DNA from: Alphaproteobacteria bacterium
GTDB taxonomy: Bacteria > Pseudomonadota > Alphaproteobacteria > Rs-D84
Assembly (NCBI GenBank): GCA_017615655.1
Contig: JAFZZS010000007.1
Location: forward strand, 59,463 to 123,462
Direction: 5' to 3'
DNA length: 64,000 bases
In this document: positions 33,933-38,303 of the stretch, in pieces
How the letters are laid out: the number at the start of each line of letters is the position of its first letter
How positions within the stretch are numbered: the stretch's first letter is position 1
Translations under genes and position numbers: made by a program
Notes under the pieces: model-generated
Databases searched by the model: none
The model's input: the letters and a program-made list of their open reading frames with translations, nothing else
Told to the model about the DNA's origin: nothing

Positions 33933-36900
33933 ATGCCATCAAATATTCAAAATGGAAACAATCGGTTATATCGTGAACGCGTGAATACTTCGGATGAAAA
34001 TACATTACTGTTTATAAAAAATATTGCGCGTGTATATAACGAAATGGGTCTGTTGTCAGATGCTCAAAAGACCCAGGTAGATGGTATGGATAATGTTACG
34101 GCGGCTAATAGAATTATCGGCAAAGTCAAAGAGATGAGCCGTGAACAAACTTTGGAATTTAGTGACCGTTTTATTGGTAATGATTTAACGAATTTTAATG
34201 GTGCAACCCCTGCCATTCTTGCCGAGGCGTATCGTGCCGTATTTGCAAAGGCTAAAACTGATGAAACACAAAAACAGCGTTTGCAAAAAATTGCACAACA
34301 CATAGATAACATGTCTGCTGATTGTGCGAATACTGGGGGGCTAGTTGTAAATTCAACAGTGGTTGATACAACAAATATTGCCGATGTATATCCGGGTTTT
34401 GTGGATATGATACATGCACGTATGGGCGATTTGGAAAAAGAAAAAGACGAAAAAAAGATTGCGGATAAACGTGCCGAAATGGCCGGGTTAGGTGTCGGTT
34501 TAAATGATTCAAACGTTAATCAGATGAATAAAAATCTGGAAATGCTTGGTGAGATAATAGATGAATACGATGATATGTGGGGATTAAAAAATATCTCGTC
34601 CAAGAATGCGTTTAGACTTGAAAAACGTTGGAAATCAATAACAGATGCACTTGCGCATGCGGAATTATCCGAAGAAACAAAAAAATTAATATCTAAATAC
34701 AGGTTCTTGGATGCCCAGGGAAACGTAATTCCCCAGTTCAAATCTAGAAACAGGGCAAACAGAATAGAGGCTATTAATTATGCGAAACGCCACAAAATCA
34801 TCAAAGATGGACGTCTTGCATCGGTCATAGAACTGGCGCGTCATGATGTTGCAAAAAGGCATGTTGGCAGGATAGATGAAAAAATAGATGCCGATGCATT
34901 AGAGGCCGAGTTAAATACGGAAATAGTATTAAAACTTTATAACATGGCGGTTGCGGACAAATTAGTAACTGATGCTATTAGTAATCCTGAAACGTTTGTA
35001 GCCACTGAAAATCCCGATGAAATTGTTCAGAGTTTATCTGTGAATGGCGGTGAGATATCCAATGATTCATACCTGGCTATGCTTAGGTCCCAGACCAATG
35101 CAACGGGTGGTTGGGCAGATCGTATCAAGGCAAAATCTGGCAGCGCCGGTGATTATCTTGGTGATGGTTTCTTTGATAGGGTATTTGACAGCATAGATCG
35201 TGTCGATGATATGGCTAATCTGCGTCTTACCAAGGTGCAAGTCGACGCAAATAAAACGCGTGCTGAATTATTCAAGGGCATATTAAAAGGTTTTGCATCT
35301 GCATTCATTGCCAGTGCAATAATAACCACAATCGCCACAGCTGCGGCAGCTACCGCAGGAATTTCAGTTGCGGCGTCACTTGCAATGGTTGGGTTTATTA
35401 TTGCGCTTGGACGTGGAATTGCCCAGGTTCATCGTTGGCGTAAACAACAAGAGAAAGAAGGGCGATTAACCGCAGATTCAACCCCACGCGAAGTCATAAA
35501 TGCTTTACTGCGGGACAAGCAACTTATTACATCACTTGGGGTAAGTGCAATCGCCGTGATTGCAATATGTTTTGGTGCGGCAGGTATGGCCGATGCGGCA
35601 ATGGCACTTGGGTATGGTGCGTTAGCACTTGGTGGCGCAAAAAATATGTTTGATGCATATCACAAGGCACAAGATGCAAACATGTCAGTTGTTGAATCTT
35701 TGGCATGGGCAATTGCAACCGCAGGCGCAATTGCAGCAGGTGGTGTTACTGGACGTGCAGCCGCACAGGCGGGTACCGGTTGGGTAAATGAGCACTTCCA
35801 AAATAATAGAATATTTCAACGTGTAGAACACACAACTGAACAACACGAGGTTACCAAAGAAGTTGAACATAGTAAGATGGTTACTGATTATCCCGAAGAA
35901 GCGGTGCCGCGTGCCGAAACGGCAATAAAAAATTGGTATGCGGATAATCCAGAATTGTTACAACAACGTATAGACGCAATAGAATCATATAATGCCGAAC
36001 ATGGAACAGATATAAATCCATATCGTGCTTTGCGTGTTATGTCGTTGGCAGGTTCAGACCCAAATCATTTGTCATACACAGACGAATGGGCGGTACAGCA
36101 CGGTTATACACCTGAACAAATAAATGCTATGGCCAATATTTTTGAACCGGGCAGCGCAGTTATGAATAACCCCGAAGGGATGGAATTGGTTCAACATTTT
36201 GACTTGACCCGTCTTGATGCCCAGGGACATATTGGTGGTGTAGATGGCCACGTATTGCAACCGCGTGATGTGTATTCAGATCTTGGTGATATGCCGACAC
36301 AACACACCGAGACTTGGACCGAAACCGAAACACATACAGAAACGGTTGATACAACAACGCGCACACCAGTGGATGCGGGTGGTATGGCAATGTTCGGAAC
36401 AATTACTTTGCGCGACAGATTAAAACGGTTGCGCAGACGTGTTGGTGCACATTTGGATACACTTAAAGAGGGTAAACTCAAACACAATCAAACTGTGTTA
36501 CAGCCTGTATTGGAATCCGAACCTGAACAACATACGGAACCAGAATTAACCCAGAAACCTGAAAATATATCTGAACCAGAACCTGTTATTGAAACTGTTT
36601 CAGAACCAGAACCGACATCGGAATTAAAACCCGATCAATTACCGGTACTAGAACCCGTGTTTGAGCCAGAATCAGAACCAGAACCTGTTATTGAAACTGT
36701 TTCAGAACCAGAACCGACATCGGAATTAAAACCTGATCAATTACCAGTACTAGAACCAGTGTTCGAGCCAGAGTTAGAACCAGAACCTGTTATTGAAACT
36801 GTTTCAGAACCAGAACCGACATCGGAATTAAAACCCGATCAATTACCGGTACTAGAACCAGTGTTCGAGCCAGAGTTAGAACCAGAACCCGTTCAGGAAC

Positions 36901-38303
36901 CAGTGATAAAACCGGAAGTGGTAACGAAAAAACCAATAGTTTGGCTTAATAGGTCGCAGTACAAGTCATGGCAAGATATGAATGAAAGGCTTAAAACCGT
37001 AAGAGAACGACGCAAGGCGAACCCAAGTCCAAGTAAAGCCGCGGAACTGCGCGCGCAAGAAGAGGATCTGAATCGACGGATTAACTATTTGCGTAATCAA
37101 CTTGGTCACGCGACTATTGAAGAAATAGAACTTGGAGTTGAAAAAGCCAAAGATCGCGAATTGCTAGATTTATACAGGGCACAGTTGAAAAACCTGATTG
37201 CGCGCAAACCAGATTCTGCGCGTCAGTCAATTATTGATGATTGGAAACGCAGAAAAGCGGCACTGGAATCCCAAATCAAAGAAAAAGAAGATTCTTTGAT
37301 GAAGTGCGAATTTTATTATCCAAATCCCGTCAAAGGTGTTCAGGCGCAAAAACAAGAAGAACGTGAGGCGCAACGTGTTGCAAGCATAAATGTTGGTGAA
37401 ATTTTGAAAAAACGTGATGAAGCCAAAGAGGAACGCGCAAGACAATTTAGAATTGCTGAACGCAAAGTTCCAGACGCCACATTACCAAATACTTTTGATT
37501 CTGTCTTGGAAAGGGCGCATCAGAAGACAATTATACAAACCGTGGATAGTGAATATATTGTTCCAAAAAGTTTGCAAATTTTGGCCGAAAACAAGGATGT
37601 CGCCAATCAAAAGGTTGGAAAATATCATGATTTCCCGGTCAAATTTGTAGATATAACCCACAGTGAAAACCCGATTGGTAATAATGATGGAACCCCAATT
37701 GTTGCGGTTGATATTGCGGGTATAAGGTTATTATTTGCTTTGTCTACGGGTATGAATCCGGACATACCGGCCGCGCCAGGCTGCTGGTACCCTGTGTCCA
37801 GAATATCAAATAAGGACGGCAAATTTAATATGTCATTTCACGTACAGGATAGACATGCAAAATTACAAGATGCCTTGCTAGAAATAGCGGACCTGTTAAA
37901 TACAAAAGTTGGCGATGTCCGCAATTGGAAAGATAAAAAACTTACCCAGGAATATCGTTCCCATGGTGGTGATGGTTTCATTGGTGGTTGCAATGTGATA
38001 CCGCAAACCGATTTTACCAACGTGTTCAAAGCATTAGTTAATTCGGTTTATCATTGGGATGATTCTTTCTATGATAATTACTCTTGCTATAGTACAATGC
38101 CAGGCGACACGCAAGAAGCATCAAGATACGATGATCTGGTAAGTCGTGCATTGTTAGACGAGGTCCAAGGACCAAATTGGAAAAAGGGCAGGTTACTGAA
38201 TCTGTTACGCAGACCGCGCGGTCGGGATGATGAACCCCAAGGTGTTCTAAGAGGTTTATTATCCAATATCAAACAAAAACTGAATAATTCACGTAAAGGG
38301 TAA
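33933..38303 (+). CDS. large repeat-containing membrane-anchored protein of unknown function (candidate surface/effector protein)
   Basis: 1456 aa from SD gagggggatattATG; three Gly/Ala-zipper TM segments (aa ~460-620); three 34-aa PE-rich tandem repeats (102-nt units at 36573..36878); K/E/R coiled-coil; C-terminal ~300-aa Cys/His-containing domain with no recognisable family. Confidence 0.6.
36573..36878 (+). repeat. 3 x 102-nt near-identical tandem repeats (plus partial 4th copy) inside the large ORF
   Basis: gaaccagaacctgttattgaaactgtttcagaaccagaaccgacatcggaattaaaacc(c/t)gatcaattacc(g/a)gtactagaacc... repeated at 36573, 36675 and 36777 with only a few substitutions. Confidence 0.85.

Follow-up and report, generated by a model that had tools for sequence, protein, structure and literature searches.

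The gene at positions 33933..38303 (plus strand) of a 64,000-nucleotide stretch of contig JAFZZS010000007.1 (positions 59,463 to 123,462; assembly GCA_017615655.1, an uncultured rumen alphaproteobacterium of the Rs-D84 lineage), hereafter the window, encodes a 1456-residue membrane protein that is a member of a previously undescribed, lineage-restricted family. Comparison of the window with related genomes reveals that this gene is a recombination mosaic and by far the fastest-evolving gene of its neighborhood. It is a hotspot for the exchange of old, divergent modules: the N-terminal domain, a linker and the C-terminal part are swapped between strains as separate allelic modules, and the membrane domain and a helical head stay conserved. 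Mosaicism combined with rapid divergence is the signature expected of a molecule that is exposed or faces an antagonist or partner, such as phage, host, prey or kin. As a tentative reading, to which we assign a probability of about 0.35, we propose that the protein is a resident, inner-membrane-anchored tether spanning the periplasm, which would resemble TonB and TolA in layout only.

The evidence for module exchange comes from loci of related genomes (L001, L003 and others below). Relative to L003 and L001, the 1456-residue protein is 35-37% identical as against 65-92% for its neighbors, including BamA (86%), YifB (85%), Frr (92%) and an adjacent outer-membrane barrel (65%). L003 and L009 represent nearly one strain, with a synonymous divergence (dS) of 0.02-0.11 in the flanking genes; their homologs of the protein are virtually identical over residues 526-750 and 980-1414, show a dS of 0.4-1.2 over residues 1-525, and share 51% identity in the linker. 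Between L003 and L008, the linker has a dS of 0.07-0.09 as opposed to 0.35-0.55 in the flanks. A module-wise comparison of seven close relatives shows that P0029 and P0036 are 94% identical in the N domain, 61% in the linker and 67% in the C domain; the corresponding values are 75%, 51% and 100% for P0029 and P0040, and 76%, 97% and 75% for P0029 and P0034. The ratio of nonsynonymous to synonymous divergence (dN/dS) of the gene is 0.16-0.24 compared with 0.02-0.10 for most neighbors, with a histidine phosphatase gene and a Na/Ca antiporter gene at 0.10-0.24. No 75-codon window exceeds 0.62, and all those in the N domain lie below 0.4. Given this low overall dN/dS, the gene is functional and under purifying selection.

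A word-indexed search recovered 63 clusters, all labeled 'hypothetical' and derived from rumen and gut metagenome-assembled genomes (MAGs) described as Alphaproteobacteria or Rickettsiales bacterium, and a profile of the full family run against the same database returned the same 63 proteins only. An exhaustive hidden Markov model search with the core (residues 1-845) against 1.84 billion representatives detected 206 relatives at E<=1e-3, 138 of them at E<=1e-30 and all of them unnamed. Scanning JGI metagenomes for relatives yielded two loci; a scan of genome contigs yielded one, using a single-sequence query for which an alignment would be a better substitute. No relatives were present among the 2.9 million viral contigs of IMG/VR. 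The unit that defines the family comprises the N domain, the membrane domain and a stalk-and-head region. Many members stop a few residues past an Arg-Gly motif, and many bear an N-terminal extension of 100-500 residues. The linker, a set of helical hairpins and the C-terminal domain constitute a subfamily extension, which is seen in 55 of the 134 full-core members and was not found outside the family, a profile search of the word-indexed database with the C-terminal domain having given a single fragment. These long forms end again in a basic tail resembling R-x-x-R-F-G. In every member the linker is proline-rich (9-29%), acidic and ~50-180 residues long, and the linkers of other lineages contain independent tandem repeats of 12, 21, 34, 35 and 38 residues. 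Two divergent metagenomic relatives, P0177 (2049 residues) and P0197 (2423 residues), display ankyrin repeats (Pfam Ank, E 1e-30) situated far upstream of the conserved membrane and head domains, which shows that this family can have its N-terminal portion replaced. In P0031 (1699 residues) the C-terminal alpha/beta domain is tandemly duplicated (residues 1117-1395 and 1450-1692).

We delineated the domain architecture using a 58-sequence family alignment and two AlphaFold2 models, with predicted local distance difference test (pLDDT) values of 86 for the model that includes the C-terminal region and 70 for that which includes the stalk and head; all coordinates of domains are on the plus strand. 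The N domain (residues 1-445; 33933..35267) is helical (pLDDT ~80-93) and predicted to be cytoplasmic, with conserved polar positions that include D125, R163, D213, Q268, R397 and R443. No signal peptide or N-terminal hydrophobic signal was detected in the protein. The membrane domain (residues 446-612; 35268..35768) is composed of 25% Ala and 11% Gly. Conservation within the protein peaks here, with up to 86% identity across the family and the invariant residues G453, A472, G476, W502, G560, G567, G603 and G607. An earlier note on this DNA, made by a model from the letters alone, had described three Ala/Gly-rich segments here. These hydrophobic segments are real, but of the three stretches (46, 39 and 21 residues) the two longer ones could each accommodate a helical hairpin. 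A division into five segments is therefore preferable to three, with the hairpins 453-473/477-495 and 531-549/553-569, followed by 587-607. The next region (residues 613-845; 35769..36467), previously taken for a Thr/Glu-rich linker, is instead a stalk-and-head, in which two T/E-rich predicted beta-strands of 24 residues each (629-652 and 789-812, pLDDT ~50-80) flank a conserved helical head (657-760, pLDDT ~90). It terminates in GMAMFG and an Arg-rich motif with the family consensus L[RK][DE]R[IV]G[SA][FL]xD[RK][IV], wherein R836 is present in 122 of 125 family members and G838 in 123 of 125.

The extension begins with an acidic Pro/Glu linker (residues 846-1000; 36468..36932; 21% Pro, 25% Glu, net charge -32), whose sequence cannot be aligned across the family. 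It is followed by a Lys/Glu/Arg-rich helical region (residues 1001-1195; 36933..37517; AlphaFold2 model m77a0743c71aa). This region, described in the earlier note as a coiled coil, is modeled as two helical hairpins (approximately residues 1007-1056 and 1062-1123, pLDDT 94-98 over model residues 1-130) with less confident helices thereafter. Beyond it lie an alpha/beta domain (residues 1196-1410; 37518..38162; pLDDT mostly >90) and a basic tail (residues 1411-1456; 38163..38300) with a net charge of +5 across its last 30 residues. In relatives this tail bears the R-x-x-R-F-G-like motif, which resembles the motif at residues 833-844. Thus, the C-terminal domain that the note had put at ~300 residues has a globular part of ~215 residues plus the 46-residue tail; its lack of a known match persists. 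The Cys and His positions proposed to be conserved are not so in the family, with the CWYP motif retaining W and P alone, alongside a few Gly and hydrophobic residues. A conserved catalytic or metal-binding Cys/His site in this domain was rejected, as these positions vary within the family.

Searches of Pfam, NCBIfam, PHROGs and PADLOC with the whole protein, five pieces of it (at E<=10), 13 divergent relatives and 17 aligned members recovered nothing meaningful; the 1456-residue protein has no PHROG match at E<=0.1 and no match to PADLOC anti-phage defense models at E<=0.01. Profiles of the full family and the core recovered only coiled-coil or compositional noise among PDB sequences, and a Foldseek search of the PDB with the C-terminal model gave no match at E<=1e-3. 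Neither an autotransporter barrel nor a recognized secretion domain was found in the protein (Pfam; C-terminal model of alpha/beta type). The helical-hairpin region shows weak matches of the coiled-coil type to Wzc (E 0.23) and HlyD_2 (E 0.2). The first hydrophobic hairpin (35289-35420, residues 453-496) weakly matches Pfam Fusion_gly in 5 of 17 members, paramyxovirus F0 chains in the PDB at E 1-7, and the plant DUF677 in 7 of 17 members. These matches are probably compositional, and those to fusion peptides have no bearing on ancestry.

The full open reading frame (ORF) extends over 33885..38303 on the plus strand. The coding sequence from 33933 exactly matches NCBI MBO4480667.1, a record titled 'MAG: hypothetical protein J5742_03540 [Alphaproteobacteria bacterium]'. 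Translation almost certainly begins with the ATG at 33933 rather than that at 33885, given the strong Shine-Dalgarno sequence GAGGGGGAT at 33919-33927, 5-6 nucleotides before the former, and the location of the latter within a -10-like TATGAT box. Counted from 33933, the N-terminus is kept in the family as MPxN. The Shine-Dalgarno sequence and the 1456-residue NCBI form thus bear out the start chosen in the earlier note. The gene callers of the ENA assemblies begin at ATG 33885 (MIKLSQKNN...), giving a product 16 residues longer. The promoter-like TTTACT-17-TATGAT at 33861..33889 (plus strand) is a consensus match alone, there being 19 such sites as against 17 expected in shuffles. An intrinsic-terminator-like hairpin, CGGGGAATTTTCCCCG, followed by a T-run, is found at 38309..38334 (plus strand), 6 nucleotides past the stop codon, and suggests that the gene is transcribed solo. 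The GC content is ~0.40 all along the window, without a compositional island at the gene.

Within the linker, Tandem Repeats Finder reports an array of 3.2 copies of a 102-nucleotide unit (36569..36893, plus strand; 95% matches, score 580). The three 34-residue repeats had been called identical; they are near-perfect, but 4-5 of 102 nucleotides differ between copies, nearly all synonymously, with one S/L change. Given that the unit is in frame, each unit gained or lost shifts the length of the linker by 34 residues. A contig of the same strain, 99.96-100% identical over 24 kb, has one unit as against three, a difference of exactly 204 nucleotides, and the lengths of the NCBI and ENA contigs are likewise exactly 204 bp apart. 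A break within the array interrupts the gene in two more assemblies. These observations are consistent with real copy-number variation of the unit, but a collapse of the repeats in short-read assembly accounts for them equally well. The same problem of repeat mis-assembly has been documented for the Anaplasma virB6-4 gene (PMC3556328). Of the recent expansion or slipped-strand variation that had been proposed, the lineage-specific expansion of linker repeats is upheld; variation between strains rests on assemblies that might have collapsed.

The gene occurs in a common gene order in six genomes (the window, L001, L003/L004, L008, L009 and L010). Upstream of it lie bamA-rseP-cdsA-uppS-frr, a tRNA-Ala, the histidine phosphatase gene and the Na/Ca antiporter gene (minus strand), with the tRNA-Ala 1.7 kb away; an Rfam search of the window recovered three tRNAs and nothing else. 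Downstream are a gene for a predicted outer-membrane barrel of ~317 residues, yifB (minus strand), lepB, rnc and secG. Every related genome seen apparently has one syntenic copy. From this conserved synteny, the housekeeping neighbors and the lack of IMG/VR relatives, the gene is a chromosomal, stand-alone and vertically placed one, outside any island. Two distant members of the family are surrounded by other, unrelated housekeeping genes: that of L006 is found beside tolC-macAB and recF, and that of L011 beside nusG, a ROK kinase gene and anmK. The barrel gene and the C-terminal domain co-occur in the six genomes and are both missing from L006 and L011, and no partner gene is conserved across the whole family in the loci compared. 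In the window, the barrel gene (38381..39334, plus strand) encodes a 317-residue product that has a signal peptide and the sequence RFEF at its C-terminus. The note had considered this product a paralog; it does resemble a barrel-type outer-membrane protein, but a BLASTP comparison with the other ORF of this type in the window gave only an E of 0.025, which does not bear out paralogy. An operon uniting it with the gene was considered as a candidate and is weakened by the terminator right after the stop codon. The spot between the tRNA-Ala and the antiporter gene is variable (window 32160-33857; L003 7341-9907; L008 7218-9906; L009 8379-9907). L003 and L009, nearly identical elsewhere, share only 42% identity in the histidine phosphatase encoded there, and the spot additionally contains a gene for a 256-residue protein in L003, and a GIY-YIG ORF and a gene for a 209-residue protein in L008, which the window lacks.

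We infer the topology of the protein from conservation, charge statistics over 134 members and the structure models, which are themselves observed. The counts of K+R and D+E residues are respectively 6.0 and 1.6 before segment 1, 7.8 and 2.7 after segment 2, 3.3 and 1.8 after segment 4, and 1.7 and 1.8 after segment 5. Under the positive-inside rule, these loop charges favor an arrangement with the N-terminus inside, two hairpins, one more helix and the C-terminus outside. Segments 2 and 3 have Kyte-Doolittle values of 2.1-2.3, compared with 2.0-2.6 for helices of the Na/Ca antiporter, CdsA and RseP from the same genome. In the tether that we propose, the helical N domain of ~430 residues would remain cytoplasmic, and the five Ala/Gly-rich helices, two hairpins plus one, would anchor the protein, with the invariant spacing of small residues probably packing them as glycine-zipper helices into an oligomer. 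The chain might then exit the membrane as a beta-ribbon stalk bearing the conserved helical head and come back to the membrane surface at the invariant Arg-Gly motif. Past this core, the arm specific to the subfamily would consist of a rigid, acidic, Pro-rich spacer, the two helical hairpins and the alpha/beta domain. The spacer, with ~155 residues, could reach up to ~45 nm if extended, which is more than the width of the periplasm, and in-frame gain or loss of 34-residue repeats could alter the reach of the arm. The arm would bring the alpha/beta domain into contact with peptidoglycan, the outer membrane or a protein of the outer membrane. A resident protein of this kind is supported by the conserved membrane core, the purifying selection and the syntenic housekeeping setting.

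Several observations weigh against this proposal. The hydrophobicity of segments 4 and 5 is marginal (family mean Kyte-Doolittle 1.0-1.1), and if segment 5 fails to span the membrane the entire C-terminal half would be cytoplasmic; furthermore, one divergent branch of the family has polar sequence in place of the membrane segments. The N domain, which would be cytoplasmic, is a hypervariable, swapped module, and this is hard to reconcile with a housekeeping tether. The library searches detected no similarity to TonB, TolA or VirB10 domains. The weak similarities to Wzc and HlyD_2 do point to periplasmic helical hairpins, but they are not significant and lie at the level of coiled coils. Finally, the co-occurrence of the barrel gene and the C-terminal domain is drawn from one clade only, and a terminator lies between the barrel gene and the gene for the 1456-residue protein.

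Two other features of the window are pertinent to the alternatives. Positions ~11800-23930 contain a T7/podovirus-like structural cluster, which is chromosomal and lies beside core genes. It includes a scaffold-like gene (Phage_T7_Capsid), capsid (Phage_capsid_2; 13716-14531), Tube-like (14840-15358), portal (Head-tail_con; 22237-23463) and Phage_Bbp19 genes, a gene for a 568-residue protein without a known match (15374-17080), and an apparently split large terminase (N-terminal ORF 17450-18043; C-terminal ORF 21292-22215). The split is attributable to a 3.3-kb minus-strand segment coding for a 220-residue protein, a helix-turn-helix protein and dnaB (19818-21377). No genes for internal-core proteins or fibers were seen in the cluster, which could be a prophage remnant or an element akin to gene transfer agents. 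Downstream of bamA are four minus-strand genes (24314-26658), whose products are a 48-residue lipoprotein (MKKIILGVFVGLALAGC..., LAGC lipobox) that is VirB7-like by its size and lipobox, a VirB8-like protein with an N-terminal membrane helix (PF04335, 25.7 bits against a cutoff of 23.2), a 216-residue membrane-anchored protein and a 272-residue secreted protein. The VirB8-like and 216-residue proteins are 46-50% identical to their L001/L003 orthologs, as against 86% for BamA, making them fast-evolving envelope proteins too. An orphan VirB11-like ATPase of 331 residues (3157-4152, minus strand) scores 150 bits with TIGR02788, below the cutoff of 250, and its gene is flanked by priA and small ORFs without known matches, not by vir genes. 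This setting suggests a type IV system that is either degenerate or, in the style of Rickettsiales, scattered.

In the main alternative, which we regard as somewhat unlikely, the protein would be a translocated effector or translocon component, exported by a type IV or other system to insert its hairpins into the membrane of a host (e.g. a rumen ciliate) or target cell, with the N and C domains facing the target cytosol in the style of chlamydial Inc proteins. Such a role would suit a gene that evolves faster than any other in the region (35-37% identity versus 65-92% for its neighbors), with independently assorting modules and alleles older than the strains carrying them (dS ~1 against 0.02-0.11 in the flanks). 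It would also suit the two 'bilobed' hydrophobic stretches of 39-46 residues with a composition like that of viral fusion peptides; the basic C-terminus (family mean +3.0 over the last 30 residues, at least +3 in 59% of members); the Arg-Gly motif, conserved where it closes the short forms and found again as a degenerate version at the terminus of the long ones; the divergent member with ankyrin repeats; and the VirB7-like lipoprotein, VirB8-like and VirB11-like genes within the window. As context, without a link to the source MAG, Rickettsiales amplicon sequence variants have been reported as specific to rumen-protozoa-associated communities (PMC11222294). Yet no part of the protein is better conserved than the membrane domain, and its loop charges obey the bacterial positive-inside rule. 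The hydrophobic domains of Inc proteins are, on the contrary, not known to be conserved in sequence. Segments 2 and 3 match resident inner-membrane helices in hydrophobicity, which makes capture by the signal recognition particle likely. Moreover, the gene is apparently single-copy and syntenic among housekeeping genes in the related genomes seen, all 75-codon windows across the N domain have a dN/dS <0.4, and the DNA available showed no VirD4, VirB4 or VirB9/10, with the VirB11-like ATPase at 150 bits as against a curated cutoff of 250. The suggestion in the earlier note of a surface antigen or host-targeted effector thus stands only in part: the fast mosaic evolution, vir-like genes and ankyrin-bearing relative speak for it, whereas the lack of a signal peptide, autotransporter barrel, secretion domain or island, the conserved membrane domain and the resident-type charges speak against it. 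A broader proposal, which we hold to be unlikely, is that the family is a new class of modular specificity proteins of uncultured Alphaproteobacteria that inhabit rumen and gut, probably in association with protists or hosts, the proteins being either delivered into the membrane of a partner cell via a Rickettsiales-like split type IV system or forming the hypervariable contact arm of such a system. Here the conserved glycine-zipper, fusion-peptide-like core would serve membrane insertion, the stalk-and-head with the Arg-Gly motif would be a delivery or assembly module, and the N (including ankyrin), linker and C modules would be shuffled among strains by recombination under frequency-dependent selection.

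The remaining alternatives deserve less weight still. An even number of membrane passes would leave both ends in the cytoplasm, and the protein might then be a membrane-anchored scaffold or polar landmark in the style of HubP/FimV, PodJ and TipN, whose acidic repeats and coiled coils would serve as spacers under little constraint and recruit partners in the cytoplasm. We judge this rather improbable. Polar landmark proteins typically have coiled coils and acidic linkers rich in repeats; segment 5 is marginal (mean Kyte-Doolittle 1.0, a nearly invariant Asn and frequent Glu), fast evolution centered on the linker and coiled coil accords with low constraint, and the variability of the N domain is no harder to account for than under the tether. 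However, the charge after segment 5 is neutral (1.7/1.8) as opposed to the strongly basic three loops assigned to the cytoplasm, low constraint alone leaves unexplained both the imported divergent alleles and the recently shared linker (dS 0.07-0.09 against 0.35-0.55), and library and PDB searches found no similarity to known landmark proteins. A very divergent part of a split type IV system of the Rickettsiales style, analogous to the 'extended VirB6' paralogs, appears a little less probable again. Its architecture and evolutionary behavior would match the published descriptions (PMC3556328, PMC2653234), the VirB7-, VirB8- and VirB11-like genes are scattered in the window, and the invariant W502 adjoins the membrane. 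Against this, PF04610 (COG3704) is matched by neither the protein, nor its membrane piece at E<=10, nor 17 diverse members, whereas all five Rickettsia VirB6 paralogs retrieve it (PMC2653234); in addition, the gene never adjoins virB3/virB4 or another vir gene in eight loci. The five-segment topology model of VirB6 is the reverse of N-in/C-out, and thus opposite to the arrangement predicted here. Membership in VirB6 itself was rejected on the undetected TrbL/VirB6 domain and the position of the gene outside vir loci. Most improbable of all is an internal (ejection) protein derived from a phage or gene transfer agent and tied to the T7-like cluster 10 kb upstream. Phage ejection proteins are large, helical, mosaic, and soluble before they insert into membranes, and the podovirus-like head and tail-tube cluster (~11.8-23.5 kb) has no recognizable internal-core proteins of its own. 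Nevertheless, there is no PHROG match at E<=0.1 and no relative in 2.9 million IMG/VR contigs, the essential genes bamA, rseP, cdsA, uppS and frr separate the gene from the cluster, and no phage genes lie within 8-10 kb of the distant family members. A phage origin was rejected on these missing matches, intervening essential genes and phage-free distant loci.

Four domains, namely N, membrane core, stalk-and-head and C-terminal alpha/beta, are confidently folded or conserved and have no relative in curated libraries or the PDB. This makes the family a piece of dark matter, in structure as well as function, among poorly known gut and rumen Alphaproteobacteria. Given the divergent, swapped modules amid near-identical flanks, the gene also marks where the interactions of these bacteria might be sought. 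In architecture and behavior, the closest published analog is the extended VirB6 of Rickettsiales (RvhB6a-e; VirB6-3 and VirB6-4 of Anaplasma), with which it shares a large polytopic core and divergent hydrophilic extensions. These proteins have at least five transmembrane segments and acidic, strain-variable C-terminal repeats prone to assembly collapse, and they are the most variable type IV secretion components, with divergent flanking sequences (PMC3556328, PMC2653234). They likewise belong to Alphaproteobacteria with split vir loci (PMC3556328, PMC2653234), and the resemblance is at the level of architecture only. The repeats of the 1456-residue protein differ in being short and few (3 x 34 residues), and its family core ends in a stalk-and-head foreign to VirB6. 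With chlamydial Inc proteins it shares 'bilobed' stretches of 40-60 residues (here residues 449-495 and 531-569), flanking coiled-coil-rich hydrophilic domains, rapid divergence and the want of a classical signal peptide. It departs from them in its strongly conserved membrane domain with invariant Gly/Ala, in basic flanking loops that fit insertion into its own bacterial membrane, and in having apparently one syntenic copy per genome as opposed to a multigene family; moreover, signal-peptide and secretion-domain analysis of the sequence yielded no evidence of secretion. The likeness to glycine zippers and class I fusion peptides resides in segments 1-2, which are rich in Ala, Gly and Thr with small residues at i, i+4 and i+7, but the F0 matches (E 0.1-7) are not significant and are probably compositional.

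The layout predicted for the tether, with a cytoplasmic N-terminus, an inner-membrane anchor, a Pro-rich and/or long helical periplasmic spacer and a globular C-terminal domain directed towards the outer membrane, is that of TonB, TolA and VirB10. Part of the TonB spacer is a (Glu-Pro)n sequence, and the linker of the 1456-residue protein, with 21% Pro and 25% Glu, would be comparable if periplasmic as predicted. The parts themselves are different: there is no similarity in sequence or fold to TonB_C (PF03544), TolA or TrbI/VirB10; five membrane segments follow a 450-residue N domain as opposed to the single N-terminal anchor of TonB; and the ~430-residue N domain and the stalk-and-head are absent from all three of these proteins. 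Unlike TonB and TolA, the protein is hypervariable and mosaic, and no exbBD- or tolQR-like partner genes were found in eight loci. If the protein is a translocated effector, it would represent a new type of membrane-inserting translocated protein; if it is the tether that we favor, it would span the envelope with an architecture whose parts bear no relation to those of TonB, TolA and VirB10.

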